64,000 bases of DNA from a virus. Below are positions 5,438 to 53,261 of this stretch, one piece after another. The stretch covers positions 1 through 64,000 of the IMG/VR virus record IMGVR_UViG_3300042923_000319; one strand, written 5' to 3'. The notes beneath the pieces were generated by a model. That model saw only the letters and a program-made list of their open reading frames with translations. It did not search any database and was not told the origin of the DNA. Within the stretch, counting starts at the first letter, position 1. Each line of letters opens with the position of its first letter. A program made the translations under genes and the position numbers.

Positions 5438-5973
5438 GAAAAATAACATTAGATGAGCTGAGAGAACTTGCAGTAGCATCCAAAGATTACCTGTGGAATA
5501 ACGCTAATTCAGTCGGTAGAGATGTAATACTTTACCTACACTGGTCAGCAGGTCGCTATGGTCAATTCTATGAGGACTATCACATCAATATTGATGCAGA
5601 TGGTTCTCTTTTTATTTCCAATGATAATCTAGCAGTCACACTATCGCATACATGGCACCGCAATACTGGAGCTATAGGAATATCCTTAGCTGCTTGCTAT
5701 GGTGCTACTACGGATAACCTAGGCGACTATGCACCAACAAAAGATCAAGTAGAAGCTATGGCACAAGTTATTGCTATGCTATGTGAATCTCTTGATCTTA
5801 CCATCGATAGAGCACATGTAATGACTCATGCAGAAGCAGCAGAAGACGATGAATATGGCTATAGTACGACTTGTGAACGCTGGGATTTGCTTATGCTTGC
5901 TACCGGTGATGAACCTTGGTCTGGTGGAGAAACATTGAGAGGTAAAGGAGAGTGGTATAGATGCCAGAAGTGA
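5434..5973 (+). CDS. Endolysin, N-acetylmuramoyl-L-alanine amidase (Amidase_2 fold)
   Basis: LYLHWSA, YHINID, HTWHRNTGAIGISL, VMTHAE Zn-amidase motifs. Confidence 0.85.
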   Translation: MRKITLDELRELAVASKDYLWNNANSVGRDVILYLHWSAGRYGQFYEDYHINIDADGSLFISNDNLAVTLSHTWHRNTGAIGISLAACYGATTDNLGDYAPTKDQVEAMAQVIAMLCESLDLTIDRAHVMTHAEAAEDDEYGYSTTCERWDLLMLATGDEPWSGGETLRGKGEWYRCQK

Positions 5974-6449
5974 CTGTAGGATTTGCTGGAGGTGACACCA
6001 GTGTTGACAAAGTAATCGAGTGGTTCTCACATGGTGAAGACGTAGATATATCCCATGCTTTTATTATGCTCTTCGATAGCACCTATGAGTCCACTGGTAA
6101 GAAAGAGGAATCCGATCCATACCCTGGAGTATGGCTTCACAATCCACAGAAATTCATCGATGATTCCCACGCAAAATTTGTGACTATCGATGTTCCAGAC
6201 ATTGAAGCTGGCAAGGAACTAGCAAGGCAACTATTGGGAACTCCATATGGCTACACTGATTGTCTACGGACAGGCATTGAAGAAATTATTGGCAAATCAG
6301 TGCCAGACAACGACTATACGATGCATTGCAGTGAAACCGTGACGCGTATCTTACGCGCTATGGGAGTCAATGTATGTCCTGAGTTAGAACCTGGGGATAT
6401 TTCTCCAGTTAGACTATATAAATCAATAATTGAAATGAGGAATGTATAA
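5961..6449 (+). CDS. Permuted papain-like NlpC/P60 amidase (YiiX/YebB type)
   Basis: His (ISHAFI) precedes Cys (HCSETV); LGTPY motif. Confidence 0.7.
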   Translation: MPEVTVGFAGGDTSVDKVIEWFSHGEDVDISHAFIMLFDSTYESTGKKEESDPYPGVWLHNPQKFIDDSHAKFVTIDVPDIEAGKELARQLLGTPYGYTDCLRTGIEEIIGKSVPDNDYTMHCSETVTRILRAMGVNVCPELEPGDISPVRLYKSIIEMRNV

Positions 6450-6667
6450 TGAGTAACGAAGCAACAACAATGGTAACTGGCATGGTATCATCTTGGGCAG
6501 AAATGACAATTGCACAGAAAAAGGCATCAGTGGAAGCTGGATTAAATGCAGAGATTATATCCACAACTAGCACATGGGTTAAATGTAGAGATCAAATATA
6601 TCTAATGATGTTAAGTTATGCTAATGAATATCTATTGAATACAATCAATAAAGCATTGACTAAATAG
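6449..6667 (+). CDS. Hypothetical protein
   Basis: Coupled ORF at the end of the lysis operon. Confidence 0.55.
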   Translation: MSNEATTMVTGMVSSWAEMTIAQKKASVEAGLNAEIISTTSTWVKCRDQIYLMMLSYANEYLLNTINKALTK

Positions 6668-6685
6668 TGAGCTAAGGCGAACGTT

Positions 6686-6729
6686 GGGGCGATGGCATGG
6701 GAATTATCCTGTGTTGTCGCCCCGTTTTT
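6686..6729 (+). terminator. Intrinsic terminator of the late/lysis operon
   Basis: GGGGCGATGGCATGGGA...TCCTGTGTTGTCGCCCC stem followed by GTTTTT. Confidence 0.75.
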
Positions 6730-6853
6730 GTCGTTTATACAGTAGAATAGCTGGAGATAGCTCTGTGAGCGTACCTTAGTAATTACATAGACAATCGTAA
6801 GCGATGCATAATAAAAACTCCTCATAACTCACTGTATTTATAAAAATAAAGTG

Positions 6854-6883
6854 TTGACAATGGTATACATATGAGTGTACAAT
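6854..6883 (+). promoter_or_regulatory. Sigma-A promoter with embedded 18-bp operator
   Basis: TTGACA-18-TACAAT with A-rich UP element; near-identical copy at 15516. Confidence 0.75.
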
Positions 6884-6909
6884 AAAGACACAAGAGAGGA
6901 GGCGAGGGG

Positions 6910-7080
6910 ATGGAAATTAAAGCAACACAGTGGGTAGCCAAAAGTTTTAACTTGGGTAATAGCTTCGGTGATGAAGTATTTGAAGCCATCAATAAATTCC
7001 AAAAGTCTGGCTATGAAGTAGAGATTCAATATCAACAGTCAAACAATGTTGTATCAGCGTTTATCATAGGAAGGGGTTAA
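6910..7080 (+). CDS. Small early hypothetical protein (56 aa)
   Basis: GGAGG RBS; MEIKATQW...; read manually. Confidence 0.55.
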   Translation: MEIKATQWVAKSFNLGNSFGDEVFEAINKFQKSGYEVEIQYQQSNNVVSAFIIGRG

Positions 7081-7129
7081 GTGTATCTATTACGTCTACA
7101 CATTAGTATACACGAAAGGAGGAACCACG

Positions 7130-7342
7130 ATGAACACACAACAACTCCACAGTATAGCAAAGAAACTCGAAGGAGTTGCTTCCCATGCTAATATTCTGAG
7201 TATCAATGCTGCAATCGAAGCTGCACACCTAGGAAGTAGTGGTAGAGCATCCCATGTAATAGCCGATGAAATCCATAAGCTAGCAGAGATAGCTATGGAA
7301 GCATCAAGGGAAATCGAAAGAGAATTGGAGGGAGAACGATGA
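7130..7342 (+). CDS. Stand-alone methyl-accepting chemotaxis protein signalling-tip fragment
   Basis: ANILSINAAIEAAHLGSSGRASHVIADEIHKLA matches the MCP consensus [33 protein letters not shown]; strong RBS AAAGGAGG. Confidence 0.85.
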   Translation: MNTQQLHSIAKKLEGVASHANILSINAAIEAAHLGSSGRASHVIADEIHKLAEIAMEASREIERELEGER

Positions 7343-7514
7343 GTCTAACTAAGAAATACATTGAGAAAAAGTATGGAGCACAACTCAGTAAAACCACAGG
7401 GTTTGATGATAATCGTCAATATTGGGAATGTTGGTTAGGCGATGAGTATGTTGATGGTTGGACATTGGCAGAAATAGTGGAAAAACTAGAATGTATTAAG
7501 GAGGAACAAAGCTA

Positions 7515-7742
7515 ATGGAAAGTATTATTTTATCAATTCTCCAATGTCTAGCGGTGACATACATCGCACAGTCAAGGAATCGCAAACGGATCTGGGCTTG
7601 GACAATCTTTGGATTATTCATACCGATCATACCGTTAATCGCTGTGTTATGTGTGGACAAACTCAAGGTGTGCCCAAACTGTGCAGAGTCGATTAAAGAT
7701 GAAGCTAAGGTGTGTAAGCATTGTGGTAGGGAGGTAGAATGA
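7515..7742 (+). CDS. Membrane protein with double zinc ribbon
   Basis: Two TM helices, then CPNCAE...CKHCG. Confidence 0.7.
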   Translation: MESIILSILQCLAVTYIAQSRNRKRIWAWTIFGLFIPIIPLIAVLCVDKLKVCPNCAESIKDEAKVCKHCGREVE

Positions 7743-8068
7743 TGAAACCAGTGAGTGAAGCTATAACATGTCTAAAGGCGCAATTGAATCATGAGGTATT
7801 TTGTGTTTACTATGCTAAAGCAAACAATGATCAGTCTAGTGAAATACAACACAGCATATTAATGAATTCTTATAGAACAGCATTGATTGCACTAGAGAAG
7901 CAAATACCAGCAAAACCAAGAGAAAACATGAATTGGGATGACGTTTGTAACGATGAAGATTTTGTAGATGAACATTGGTTATGCCATGGGTGCGAAAATT
8001 ATCTTGATGAATCTGAAGAATATTGTCGCTTATGTGGGCAAAGAATTGACTGGAGTATGAACCAATGA
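7739..8068 (+). CDS. Zinc-ribbon phage protein
   Basis: ALEKQIP...CHGC...YCRLCGQRIDWS. Confidence 0.65.
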   Translation: MMKPVSEAITCLKAQLNHEVFCVYYAKANNDQSSEIQHSILMNSYRTALIALEKQIPAKPRENMNWDDVCNDEDFVDEHWLCHGCENYLDESEEYCRLCGQRIDWSMNQ

Positions 8069-8395
8069 TTGACCAAGCACTCCTCAGCAACTTCAAAGCT
8101 CAAGCCGATGCGCTATCATTGAAATACCATAAGCCAACTATCGTAACATTCAATGAACACGCGGGAATGCAGGCGTGGATCGATAGAGAAATACCGAAAG
8201 ACTATGAAATACTATATGAGAGTGAGGGGAAATAATGATGTTACGTAAGTGCTGTTGTAATTGTGAATACTATGATTGTGACACTGGAGAAGACTGTGAT
8301 GGTGAAGATGATGTTGAACTAAACTATTGTGATGAATACGTTGAAACGCATTTTACATCATCAAATCTTCGTATATACGATAAGGAGGACACCGA

Positions 8396-8728
8396 ATGAA
8401 CACTAATGTATTCCACCATACTCTCCACCGTTCCCTATGGCAGTGGCTTGCGGATAACCCAAGTAAATCAAAGGAAGGCTGGACGAGATGGGAGAGTAAT
8501 GGTGGAGACGTAGAGGTCATATGGAGTCATTGTTTTGCATGTAAATATGCTAAAGAGTGTGGTACTTGTTATTATTGTCCTCTAGTGTGGGGTGGTAAAT
8601 ATGATAGATGCTTTGTTAATAATGGCTTGTTTGGCCAGTGGCAAAACTCCACAGATCCCCACGAGCGCACAGACCTCGCATTGAAAATCAAAGATTTACC
8701 TGTGAAGGACGGTGTGGTGTGTGACTAG
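8396..8728 (+). CDS. Cys-rich hypothetical protein
   Basis: CFAC...CYYCPL; RBS AAGGAGG. Confidence 0.6.
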   Translation: MNTNVFHHTLHRSLWQWLADNPSKSKEGWTRWESNGGDVEVIWSHCFACKYAKECGTCYYCPLVWGGKYDRCFVNNGLFGQWQNSTDPHERTDLALKIKDLPVKDGVVCD

Positions 8729-9127
8729 ACGTAAGAGGTGGGCGTGGTTTAGAATACGGAACACCAATAAGTATAATCTAAAGAAAAACGATGTACTTCA
8801 CTTGGATCATGGAATATACACTGGTGATTATTATATTGATGACATTAAATATTCAGAGGACAACTCTGATTTTGCAATGCATTTAACGGAGGTTGAACCA
8901 TGACCTATCAATACTTTATATCATATGTACAACAAGGTGGACTTTTTGGTAATTGTGATATAAGTTCGACAACAAGAGCAGAGGAAAATATTAGCGGATT
9001 CATTAAAGAAACAACGAAAGCTCTTGAGTCAAAAGGATTCAGTAATGTTGTCGTATTGTTCTACAAGAGGATATAGCTGTGTCTATAGTGTCCACTGATG
9101 TGTGGACAAGGAGAATAGGAGGAGACA

Positions 9128-12100
9128 ATGGAAATTATAGATGAGGCAGTAAATGTCCATACGCATACACAGTATTCATTAATGGACTCAACAAACAAAC
9201 CAAAGGAACTCGTAGCTAAAGTGAAAGCTATGGGGCAAGCATCAATATGTATTACGGACCACGGTGAAACTAGTGGATTAATCGAAGTGTATAACGAATG
9301 TAAAAAACAAGGAATTCACATGGTATTCGGTTGTGAGCACTACCTAGTACCCGATGTTTTAATCAAAGAAGGTGGCTATAAGCACATCATATTTTGGGCT
9401 AAGAATAACATTGGATACAATAATTTACTCAAGCTGACCACAGAAGCACATCAGAATTTCTATCGTAAACCACGTGTTGACATTGATATGATTCGTAAGT
9501 ATTCAGAAGGACTTGCGATGTCAACAGCGTGTATCGGTGGATGGCTTAGAATCAAAGATGAGTATGGGAATAACACAGTTGACATAGATTTACTTGAGCA
9601 ATTTATTGAAATATTCCCTAATGATCTATGGATAGAACTCCACACTTACTCTATTAATGAGCAGAAGTGGTGGAATAGGATTCTTATTGATATAGCAGAG
9701 AAATATAATCTACCACTCATAACAGCCTGTGATGCCCATTATACAAACAAAGAAGATGCCTATGCTCATAAAATGTGGATCACACAAGGGAAAGAGCGTG
9801 AAGATGGCTACTATCAACATCCAGAGTTTTTTCTTCATAGTGGTCAAGAAATACGTGAAGCATTATCATATCTACCTAGTGACATTGTTGAAGAAGCTAT
9901 AGCTAATACTAAGGTTCTCGCTGATAGTTGCCAAGTAGAAATAAAGTTTGGTGAACAGCATTATCCAAAGGTTGAATCAGAGAATTCAAAGGAATCAGTA
10001 AGACAGATAATGTTGAAAAATTGGAGATCAAAGGTTCCAAGGAGTGAATGGAAAGATCATGAAGCACGAGTGAATCATGAGATGCCAATCTTAGAGAAAG
10101 CAGATTATTTCCCTTATTTTCTTATTATGCATGACTTTATGGAGCACTGTCAGTCACATGGAATTCCTGTATACCCAGATTCCCGTGGTAGTGCTGGTGG
10201 CTGTGACGTAGCTTATATTATGGATATCCATAAGACTAATCCAATAAAGTATGATTTGATGTTTGCTAGGTTTCTGCATGAGGCTAGGATCACCCCATGT
10301 GACATAGATATTGATGTCTCACAGAAAAAACGTGGAGAAGCAATAGAATACATTAAAAATAAATATGGTCACGACAGAGTGTTCCAAGCAAGAACCTATG
10401 GGTACATGAGTGCTAAGGGAGCATTAAAGAGAGCTGGGAGAAGCCTTGGGTATGACCCACAGTATATTAACGATTTATCAAAAGGTATCTCAAAGTTTGG
10501 CGATGATGAATTCAAGGGTGAAGCGAAGGATAGACATCTGCTTGACCAATTGGACGCACCTAAAGACCTTATTGAGTTAGCTAAGTCTTTCGTTGGGATA
10601 CTTCAAAGTTATTCTGTACATGCCAGTGGGGTCATCGTTTTCCCAGACGATCCAAACAATTATTGTGCCATTGAAAAATCTGGTGACAATTATGTAACAG
10701 CCTATGAGTTTCATACATTGGAAAAATTAGGCATCTTAAAACTGGACATTCTTGGAATAAAAACAATAGATGTTATCTACGATACCTTAAAACTCATAGA
10801 TAATCCACCAGATATCATTAACTTACCTCCAGCAGACACGAAGACATTCGATATGTTATGCAAAGGTAAAACAGCAGGAGTATTCCAGATTGAAGGCAGA
10901 GGATTTACGCAGTTGGTTCAAGCAATTCAACCGAGAACCTTTGAAGACCTTGCTCCACTTATGGCAGTTTACAGACCAGCTATTATATCAGCAGGATTAC
11001 TTCAAACGTATATCGATAGGAGAACTGGGAAAGAGCAGGTAGAGTACCTACATCCAGACCTTGAACCTTTACTTGGACAAGTCTATGGTCTAATGATTTA
11101 TCAAGAAAATATCATTGAGGTAGCAAAGACTATCTGTGGTTATTCCGCAGGTGAAGCTGATATGATCCGTAGAGCTTGCGGTAGAAAACTCCCAGAAGAA
11201 ATGGCAAAAATTAAGCCAGACTTCATACAGCACGGGATCAGCAAAGGTTACGATATAACATTCATTGAAAGATTATGGGAATTAATTGAATTCTTTGCAG
11301 AATATGGTTTTGGGAAAGCCCACACTTACGGGTATGGGACAAGGGCGTACATTACTGCATATCTCAAAGCTAATCACACAAAAGAATTTATGGTTTCTCT
11401 TATCAATTCAGAGGATAACCAAGAAGATACAATACCATACATTGAAGAGTGTAAATCATTAGGTATTCCAATACTTCCACCAGATTTATCCGTCTGTAAT
11501 ACTCAATGGATAATCGAAGGTGATTCCATTCGTATTGGCTTACATTACCTCAAAGGTGTTGGAAATAATCTCTGTACTGATTACACAGAAACACTCAATG
11601 ATATCATAGCGCATAACCATAAGAATACTATTGAATCACTCATCAAATCTGGAGCCTTGGATTACCTCGGCCACACCCGTGCATATATGCTGACCAACCT
11701 TAGCTCACTCCAAGATACAATGAAGCGTGTTAAGCAATGCCAGCAGAAAATACGGGATAACCAAGAGTTACTGCAATCGTCCACGCTCGACAAGGACAAG
11801 CGTAAATATGAACGACAGATAAACTCATGGACACAGAAGTTAAACGAAGCACAGGCTCACACAGAGCTTACAGAAGAGTCCTATGATGAAGTCAAGGGTG
11901 AATGTGAGGTACTTGGGTTCAGCTTCAAAGAAATTCCAAAGGTTAAACTAGGGAAACTCACAAACATATTCAAGAAGAATGATAAGAACTCACACGAGAT
12001 GGCTTGGCTCACAATGGATTCAGATTATGGAGAATACCGATGTACAGTCTTTGCAAGCGGATGGAAACTCATAGCTGACAAAGTTATCGTTGGTGAATCA

Positions 12101-13585: not shown

Positions 13586-14785
13586 CTATGGTGTAATCGA
13601 TGGTGTAATGAAATCACTCTCAAATAAATCTGCTGACTTCTGCTCTGCGAAACTAATGTAATGAGCATAGGTATCTAAGGTTATCTGCACACTAGCATGT
13701 CCAAGCCTTAATGACACTGTTTTGATATTAATATTGTTCCCAATGAGCTTCGTTGCATGTGTATGTCTAATACTATGGAATGTTATTTTTCGTTCTATTT
13801 TGGCACTACCGCATGCAACTTGGAAAGCTCTTAGAATATTCCTTGGTTGTATACAATTGCCAGTAACGGTGTGAAATACATATTTAGACTTTGGTGACTC
13901 ACGTTTCTTATAGATTTCCTTTAGCTCAAGCAACAGGATCGTCATCGAGTGAGGTATCAGAATATTACGGATTGACTGTTGTGTTTTCGGAAGTCCTTCT
14001 TTTAGTCCATCCCCAGGTACATATGATATATTATTATTGATAAATATTCGATTTTCCTCTGGGAAGAACTGTGACCACCTAAGTCCAGCCATTTCACCCT
14101 CACGAATGCCTGTACAGTATGCAAGCATATAGATTACATAGGTTAGCCAGCCAGTTTTCTGTTTAGATTCTTTGTATTGATCAAATACTCCCTTGGTGTA
14201 CTTTAGTATCGCCTTATGCTCATCACTAGAAATAACAGTGATATTGCCAATAGTACCTCTTTTGCTCTTAAAGCTCTTACAGGCAGTCACAGGGTTGTCT
14301 ATGACGGTTCCCTTGGTTACAGCCAGTGTAAACATATTATTCATTATGGTTCTATATTTGGTAACAGTGGATTGGCTAAGATTCCCTTTAATAACCAAAT
14401 TTGACAAGTAGAATTCTATTGATTCAGTGTCTATCTTGCGAATATCATCGAAGTCAAAGTGCTTCCCTATATACTTTGATATTTCCTTGTAGTCAAAGGC
14501 TGTCTTAGGTTTCATGTGTATAGCAGCTACTTTGTTATCAAGGGAATCCTCCCAGAGTTCACGTAAACTCTTGAATGTTATTTTCTTGCGAGAACTTATG
14601 GTGGGCAATTTGTTTTTCTCTTTAAGGTTCTGTAGTAACCTCAGTTCTCTCTCAGCTTCAGTTTTACCATTGCGAGTTTTAGTGATTTTTCTACGCTTAC
14701 CATTTTGTGGTGATAGTTCTACAACAGCTTGCCATCGTCCATCTGGTAGTTGTCTAAGAAACCCAAGTCCTTTAGTGCCACTCAT
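13586..14785 (-). CDS. int: Tyrosine integrase
   Basis: GIREGE, HSIRHT, RLGHAS, TY catalytic motifs; N-terminal arm-binding domain; adjacent to attP. Confidence 0.95.
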   Translation of the reverse strand: MSGTKGLGFLRQLPDGRWQAVVELSPQNGKRRKITKTRNGKTEAERELRLLQNLKEKNKLPTISSRKKITFKSLRELWEDSLDNKVAAIHMKPKTAFDYKEISKYIGKHFDFDDIRKIDTESIEFYLSNLVIKGNLSQSTVTKYRTIMNNMFTLAVTKGTVIDNPVTACKSFKSKRGTIGNITVISSDEHKAILKYTKGVFDQYKESKQKTGWLTYVIYMLAYCTGIREGEMAGLRWSQFFPEENRIFINNNISYVPGDGLKEGLPKTQQSIRNILIPHSMTILLLELKEIYKKRESPKSKYVFHTVTGNCIQPRNILRAFQVACGSAKIERKITFHSIRHTHATKLIGNNINIKTVSLRLGHASVQITLDTYAHYISFAEQKSADLFESDFITPSITP

Positions 14786-53110: not shown

Positions 53111-53185
53111 GATTCGATAGTTCAATGGTAGAACAGCGGTCTCCAAAACCGTTAGATCAAGGTTCAAATCCTTGTCGGATCGCCA
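53111..53185 (+). tRNA. tRNA-Trp(CCA)
   Basis: Acceptor GATTCGA/TCGGATC, anticodon loop CTCCAAA, GGTTCAAATCC T-arm, encoded CCA. Confidence 0.9.
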
Positions 53186-53187
53186 AT

Positions 53188-53261
53188 GCTTCCTTAGTTT
53201 AACGGTAGAACGAGGATTTTGTAAATCTTTAGCGATAGTTCAACTCTATCAGGAAGCTCCA
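53188..53261 (+). tRNA. tRNA-Thr(TGT)
   Basis: Acceptor GCTTCCT/AGGAAGC, anticodon loop TTTGTAA, T-loop TTCAACT, encoded CCA. Confidence 0.85.

Follow-up and report, generated by a model that had tools for sequence, protein, structure and literature searches.

Genomic context of the tip gene

The gene described here (7130..7342, + strand) lies in a stretch of viral DNA of 64,000 nucleotides, hereafter the window, taken from the start of a 72,676-bp record that is complete according to CheckV (IMG/VR). In the ORF list the gene has an ATG start and a product of 70 aa, and it is the second in a run of ten small ORFs on the + strand that is followed by DnaE at 9128. The preceding lysis module is closed by a terminator-like hairpin of 18 pairs with a T run (6685..6724, + strand), found by scanning, and the operon starts with a sigma-70-type promoter-like site, TTGACA-18-TACAAT (6854..6883, + strand; 11/12 letters); both calls are consensus matches whose function is predicted only. 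The first ORF of the operon (6910..7080, + strand; 56 aa) has no Pfam or PHROG family above the cut-off. A Shine-Dalgarno sequence, AAAGGAGG (7115..7122, + strand), stands 7 nt upstream of the ATG of the tip gene, and the tip gene ends in a TGA that forms ATGA with the start codon of the following ORF (7339..7515, + strand; 58 aa, no Pfam or PHROG family). These features bear out the description, in an earlier note on this DNA, of a complete small gene with a strong ribosome-binding site in an operon behind a promoter. A separate promoter for the tip gene at position 7094 was considered and ruled out, as the promoter scan found no further promoter between 6883 and 7465.

Downstream lie an ORF of 75 aa (7515-7742, + strand) with a Zn_ribbon_3 domain and a match to phrog_8436, and a Cys-rich ORF of 109 aa (7739-8068, + strand) that matches phrog_10714. 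The 75-aa protein has a hydrophobic N-terminal half and a C-terminal zinc ribbon, and both PHROGs are phage families without an assigned function. Zinc ribbons are carried by several of the neighbouring small proteins. No sensor family was found by Pfam or PHROG in the ORFs that adjoin the tip gene, and none of three proteins (the tip protein and its two neighbours) matched a defence family in PADLOC.

The 18-bp site that had been reported directly upstream of the tip gene is there, as a copy of GTNNAC-N6-GTNNAC (7094..7111, + strand) located by motif scan in the 49-nt gap before the gene and ending 18 nt upstream of its start codon. Another copy (6863..6880, + strand) lies inside the spacer of the promoter-like site. 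The window contains 17 exact matches to this motif versus 0.76 expected, a number reached in 0/100 shuffles; the copies span 6863-52837 (e.g., 6863, 7094, 9090, 13122, 15525, 34643 and 50022), and several stand directly upstream of genes. The site looks like a genome-wide operator or a phage-specific regulatory site. If it is an operator, expression of the operon would be blocked in lysogens and released during the lytic cycle.

The phage and its host affinity

The record encodes a tail protein J-like protein, an Amidase_2 endolysin, DnaE, a DnaB-like helicase, ribonucleotide reductase, a tyrosine integrase (13586-14785), TerL and a portal protein, and we read it as a temperate, integrase-bearing tailed phage with a G+C content of 37.6%. 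The 3' end of the endolysin gene is overlapped by an ORF of 162 aa (5961-6449) that has no Pfam family and a weak PHROG match only (phrog_1128, E 1e-8). Genes for tRNA-Trp(CCA) and tRNA-Thr(TGT) adjoin each other at 53111-53261.

No match to a phage collection was returned by megablast of 7 kb of the window. Relatives of DnaE, TerL and the integrase in cultured phages are only 26-35% identical and belong mostly to phages of Bacillota, Pseudomonas and Actinomycetota; for TerL, the relatives in phages of Bacillota are approximately 33% identical. TerL has a match in 20 of 301 Spirochaetota genomes, in each case at 25-35% identity, and none in the four genomes that were reached through loci, and a search of IMG/VR with DnaE gave a single distant locus of 25% identity. 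Strong Shine-Dalgarno cores precede 33 of the 75 mechanically called ORFs of at least 100 aa, a frequency that is a hint only as a pointer to the host. Domain searches found no CheW or response-regulator domain encoded by the phage, and so any partner of the tip protein would be a protein of the host.

Homology, size and fold of the tip protein

The product of the tip gene, an acidic, soluble protein of 7.6 kDa, matches the Pfam family MCPsignal (PF00015) with an E-value of 7.6e-14 and a score of 52.4 bits, above the gathering cut-off of 34.6. In a genome-wide search the score is 52.3 bits and the match is the only one to MCPsignal in the whole record; NCBIfam gives only partial matches below threshold, to models of full-length MCPs. 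Residues 3-64 correspond to profile positions 32-93 of 172, and no other Pfam match lies within the 70 aa; no input module (sensor, transmembrane, HAMP, PAS or partner sensor) was found in the protein or, by family, in the adjacent ORFs. Sensor, transmembrane segments, HAMP and methylation helices can be ruled out because a total of 70 aa leaves no room for them, in agreement with the earlier description of a hairpin consisting of the tip only. Also absent are the glycine hinge and the adaptation helices and flexible bundle that flank the tip, as the chain ends approximately 32-34 residues from the turn.

A phmmer search of PDB sequences aligned residues 3-67 to residues 358-422 of Tsr (6s1k_E and 8c5v_I, with letters from 1qu7); such alignments are ungapped over 62-65 residues with E-values from 2e-10 to 9e-9, and 26 of 65 residues are identical to Tsr. 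The ungapped alignment makes the residue number of the phage protein plus 355 equal to the Tsr number, and the turn G35-S-S-G38 falls on Tsr G390-G393. The N-terminal arm comprises approximately residues 3-34, and the C-terminal arm residues 39-69, giving near-symmetric arms of approximately 34 residues before the turn and 32 after it. The AlphaFold2 model, built from a 30-row alignment, has a pLDDT of 93 and a pTM of 0.75, and its best Foldseek matches in the PDB are receptor tips (9a65, 9a72, 6s1k, 2ch7, 1qu7 and 8c5v), on which it can be overlaid with TMq 0.85-0.91 and rmsd 0.7-1.2 A over 66-67 columns; the Foldseek E-values of approximately 1.5e-3 to 1e-2 are as expected for so short a query. 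The protein is confirmed as a genuine, unusually minimal, phage-borne MCP tip. As a functional chemoreceptor it falls short, being without input module, adaptation region and the invariant Phe of the tip.

Two other accounts of the gene were rejected. The Pfam E-value, the predicted fold and the existence of three variants speak against a chance ORF, and the lack of a second MCPsignal match in the genome speaks against what is left of a longer MCP gene after breakage.

Conserved and altered residues

The hairpin tip of a receptor binds CheW and the P5 domain of CheA, and packs into trimers of dimers. In Table 1 of a 2026 review, 12 residues of Tsr are given as being no more than 4 A from CheA-P5 or CheW in the two best core-unit models (6S1K and 8C5V), namely F373, Q374, I377, L378, L380, N381, A383, V384, E385, A387, R388 and R404 (PMC13098124). 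The phage protein was compared at these tabulated positions with its 23 nearest canonical MCPs. At eight of the 12 it has the commonest residue of that group (S, L, N, A, I, E, A and H), at two it has a conservative replacement (I replaces L at 377 and M/L at 380), and at two it differs (Q374H and R404H). Over the equivalent of Tsr 376-388, the canonical pattern is kept at ten of 13 positions and the other three are conservative. Judged from this alignment, the face of the N-terminal helix that would meet CheW and CheA-P5 is largely canonical, and the phage tip may behave toward CheW and CheA like a receptor tip.

The earlier note had also pointed to altered conserved residues (AHLGSSGRAS), and these are present: residues 31-41 read AAHLGSSGRAS, and Ser41 aligns with F396 of Tsr. 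Among positions with a conservation of 80% or more in the 23 MCPs, those changed non-conservatively are Q374H, T375A, A389L, G395A, F396S, A397H and R404H, of which four cluster at the turn and in the first turns of the C-terminal helix. A Phe pair has been described at the centre of the tip in all known MCPs, where its aromatic stacking stabilizes the tip of the dimer; the pair is also a proposed ON/OFF switch, according to the account in PMC6681711. In the phage protein, A389L may refill the space left by the Phe, giving a tip that packs and cannot switch. Without the invariant Phe, the protein may just as well have ceased to act like a receptor tip.

Rarity of tip-only proteins and of Ser at the Phe position

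At the position of F396, Phe occurs in 23/23 of the nearest canonical MCPs, in 85/85 tip motifs from 80 GTDB loci (80 of 155 confirmed) and in 80/80 IMG/VR loci (80 of 185 confirmed). Over 210 tip motifs from 157 proteins the residues are F (199), S (9), V (1) and L (1), and all nine Ser cases belong to the family of the phage tip and to a family of 147-aa mini-MCPs. The latter consists of P0057 and five variants (P0153-P0157), which are sensor-less, come from metagenome contigs of 1-2 kb, and are 51-53% identical to the phage tip over the region of overlap; the motif HLG..GRAS.VIADEI is common to both families. No relatives of P0057 were found in IMG/VR or in JGI metagenome contigs, and a search for proteins of near length returned only P0057 itself.

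A check proposed in the earlier note, a search for short MCPsignal-only proteins in phages, was carried out on the IMG/VR loci with MCP tips: of 80 loci (80 of 185 confirmed), none encodes a tip-only protein or any such ORF of 130 aa or less, 78 have ORFs of more than 250 aa, and the two with ORFs of less than 250 aa run off the end of the contig. A search of IMG/VR with the tip protein itself gave ten loci, and the MCP of each is full-length (341-693 aa). When 1.84 billion representatives were searched exhaustively with HMMER, 49,747 hits had E-values of 1e-3 or less, among which the only close relative is P0001 (71 aa, 94% identity); a word-indexed search at near length likewise gave P0001 alone, and P0001 was not found in JGI metagenome contigs. 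The search for longer proteins with the tip yielded a single protein of 867 aa that has two tips and keeps GRGF.

Many of the top-scoring relatives (P0002-P0007, P0016, P0059 and P0158) have two or three tandem tip motifs per chain, and some of the tandem-tip proteins have lipoprotein-like N-termini. The ESM Atlas contains clusters of short (78-104 aa) bacterial MCPsignal entries, which are either real small proteins or truncated gene calls.

Variants of the tip protein and mosaicism of the surrounding region

The 90%-identity cluster of the tip protein comprises three distinct sequences: that of the window, found in three contigs, P0001 and P0152. Compared with the window's protein, P0001 has an extra N-terminal Met and the substitutions L23I, N26K, S37N and K50R, and P0152 has an extra Gln and the substitutions S36N, S37N and K50R. 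All three are intact, differing by three or four substitutions and one added residue, and decay by frameshift, which the earlier note had named as evidence against a function, was looked for and found in none of them, nor was a stop codon. The changes are conservative or in the loop, with the exception of N26K in P0001, which places Lys at the position of Tsr N381, one of the interface residues tabulated in PMC13098124.

The stretch is present in seven soil-metagenome runs from five studies, of which four may be the source sample; none of the seven is on record as RNA. The contigs of four soil-metagenome runs were compared over positions 6600-9200. A contig of approximately 92% identity in run X7 aligns over 7093-7290 without gaps and with 16 letters changed, and the X7 relative also covers 7278-7746 with 43 changed letters. 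The comparison further showed joints of position 6907 to 7093, 7076 to 7093 (with 285 letters between), 7342 to 7499, and 7744 to 8062 (with 439 letters between). Judging by the joints on both sides of the tip gene, relatives seem to lack the flanking ORFs or to have other sequence in their place, which suggests that the tip gene was kept while its neighbours were swapped. More skipped or replaced segments occur elsewhere in 6900-8900 (8238-8384, 8463-8659 and 8727-8899).

Proposed function and alternative explanations

Homology, fold, size, gene context and retention in variants are all matters of observation. Beyond them, we give slightly less than even credence to the reading that the tip protein is an early-expressed, soluble decoy for CheW/CheA or for receptor trimers. 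In the sequence of events that we infer, with regard to partners, timing and direction of effect alike, the tip gene would be transcribed with the early/replication operon of the phage; the free-standing interaction region of a receptor would then compete with the tips of the host for CheW, CheA-P5 or both, or alternatively the phage tip would slip into receptor trimers; and the kinase would be uncoupled from its receptors, altering the chemotactic behaviour of the infected cell. The changes F396S, A389L and G395A together would eliminate the switch by Phe stacking and make the protein a mimic of one fixed state. The outcome may be kinase-off, kinase-on or dispersal of the array. The phage might gain by an infected cell that stays put, by a change of flagellar rotation, or by blocking of a receptor under chemosensory control. 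The more specific proposal of a natural viral array jammer, in which a receptor has been cut down to a soluble, signal-blind tip of 70 residues for gripping CheW and CheA, with the switching Phe changed to Ser, and poisons or titrates the array early in infection, is put forward tentatively, as possible and somewhat doubtful.

Binding to CheW was modelled with two copies of the tip protein and CHEW_BACSU, a Swiss-Prot entry used as a stand-in for the host protein. The complex scored 0.56, compared to 0.01 for the best of three controls, relative to a mark that is reached by 58/80 solved complexes and 2/110 mismatched pairs, although at scores of 0.60 or less it is reached by only 7/80 solved complexes and by both of the mismatched pairs that pass. 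At least 90% of contacts are shared between runs, with a pLDDT of at least 77 for the partner. The model gives weak support to CheW binding; as similar complexes have been solved (3UR1 and 4JPB), it shows likeness rather than binding, and the score may reflect memory of the solved complexes.

As background, a fragment of Tsr of approximately 50 residues is reported to inhibit CheA. Experimental precedent for the decoy reading exists in engineered 71-residue tips of Tar and Tm14, which, when pre-assembled, associate with CheA and CheW and either activate CheA of E. coli or deactivate CheA of T. maritima, by 2.5- to 20-fold (bioRxiv 10.1101/2020.03.27.011866). Those tips are covalently dimerized and are trimerized by a foldon (bioRxiv 10.1101/2020.03.27.011866), and a free hairpin, unlike the foldon constructs, may bind weakly. 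Tip fragments of Tsr have been described as readily activating the kinase (PMC10998596, in a statement that cites Ames 1996), and to the extent that tip fragments can activate rather than inhibit, this counts against the jammer. Replacement of Phe by Ser may also leave a protein that neither dimerizes nor behaves as a receptor tip, and Q374H, R404H and, in P0001, the Lys at the position of Tsr N381 count against the decoy as changes of interface residues. The dominant-negative mimic or decoy inferred in the earlier note is therefore upheld only in part: the largely canonical N-terminal helix, the engineered tips and the weak 0.56 model with CHEW_BACSU are in its favour, whereas the loss of the invariant Phe is not.

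That loss, together with the non-conservative change of seven positions that are at least 80% conserved, would suit a receptor-derived hairpin that has been repurposed for a non-chemosensory partner, either a phage or a host protein, with the changes at the turn and R404H marking a new specificity. The setting among small neighbours without known function, several of them with zinc ribbons, and the lack of any defence-system family match (0/3 proteins) would suit it as well. We consider such repurposing unlikely, as the surface equivalent to Tsr 376-388, which would face CheW, P5 and the trimer axis, is canonical at 10/13 positions and conservative at three, and the model with CheW is above its controls, if weakly.

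The decoy might also be directed at a CheW/CheA-type pathway that is not flagellar, such as one that governs pili, second messengers or development; a pathway of this sort might also control the phage's own receptor. As far as is known, the interface of the tip with CheW and CheA is common to all MCP-type systems. The phage proteins Tip, Aqs1 and Zip act against type IV pili and exclude superinfection (PMC11656802), a precedent for such a target. Nevertheless, no particular pathway is indicated within the window, and a copy of the 18-bp site lies in the promoter spacer, where, if it is an operator, repression in lysogens would fit poorly with exclusion by a prophage; a non-flagellar target is accordingly rated as improbable.

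Capture of a piece of a host receptor gene without selected function is no better a prospect. In its favour are the strong mosaicism of the early operon among related contigs and the presence of only a single 90%-identity cluster, of three members, in the proteins searched. Against it, the boundaries are symmetric about the turn (approximately 34 and 32 residues), a strong Shine-Dalgarno sequence and translational coupling belong to the gene itself, no MCP remnants flank it, three variants are intact with only N26K of P0001 at an interface position, the gene appears to be retained where its neighbours are swapped, and an independent family of 147-aa proteins, 51-53% identical, has conserved the unusual tip HLG..GRAS.VI.

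Significance and comparison with known systems

Neither a tip-only MCP of a phage nor interference by a phage with chemotaxis signalling was found in the literature among the matches listed. If the proposal of an array jammer is true, the protein would be the first virus-encoded factor described as inhibiting or hijacking chemotaxis signalling in bacteria, and a natural minimal ligand for the CheA/CheW lattice. If it binds CheW, CheA or receptor trimers, phages would steer host chemotaxis by copying the interaction module of a receptor, and a naturally evolved 70-aa tip without Phe would be a probe of the Phe pair and possibly a tool for dissolving or locking arrays. If it is merely a repurposed hairpin, it would still be a case of a phage taking over an interaction module from its host for use as an independent mini-protein. 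Chemotaxis is reported to let bacterial populations evade phage predation, according to a statement in PMC13674483, and in the ecology of soil phages the finding bears on chemotactic escape from phage.

The tip protein resembles the tips of MCPs such as Tsr of E. coli (1QU7, 6S1K and 8C5V) and TM1143 of T. maritima (2CH7) in its homology, its predicted helical hairpin and the largely canonical contact residues of its N-terminal helix, but differs from Tsr and TM1143 in being encoded by a phage, in having approximately 34 residues per arm, and in the replacement of F396 by Ser along with A389L, G395A, A397H, R404H and Q374H. Outside the family of the phage tip, Ser at the Phe position was found only in the 147-aa mini-MCPs, which are about twice as long, with roughly 69 and 74 residues per arm. 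An MCPsignal domain is also borne by cultured jumbo phages (a CDS of 611 codons in Vibrio phage vB_VmeM-Yong XC31 and a CDS of 471 codons, annotated as MCP, in Escherichia phage A4), but those MCPs are long, have hydrophobic N-terminal regions and a canonical GRGF tip, and look like working receptors. Tip, Aqs1 and Zip are small helical proteins of phages, each binding a component of the motility apparatus (PMC11656802). The analogy is confined to function: their targets are PilB or PilZ rather than the chemosensory array, and they are not copies of a host interaction module. Fragments of Tm14 with lengths of 85 and 90 aa have been crystallized with CheA-P4P5 and CheW (3ur1 and 4jpb), and residues 3-63 of the phage protein align with 3ur1_C and residues 4-63 with 4jpb_B. 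The closest counterparts in size are the engineered tips of Tar and Tm14, which have 71 residues compared to 70 in the phage protein and are centred on the matching region; the engineered tips are single-chain dimers, trimerized by the fibritin foldon, in which the Phe is kept, whereas the phage protein is a natural free hairpin.
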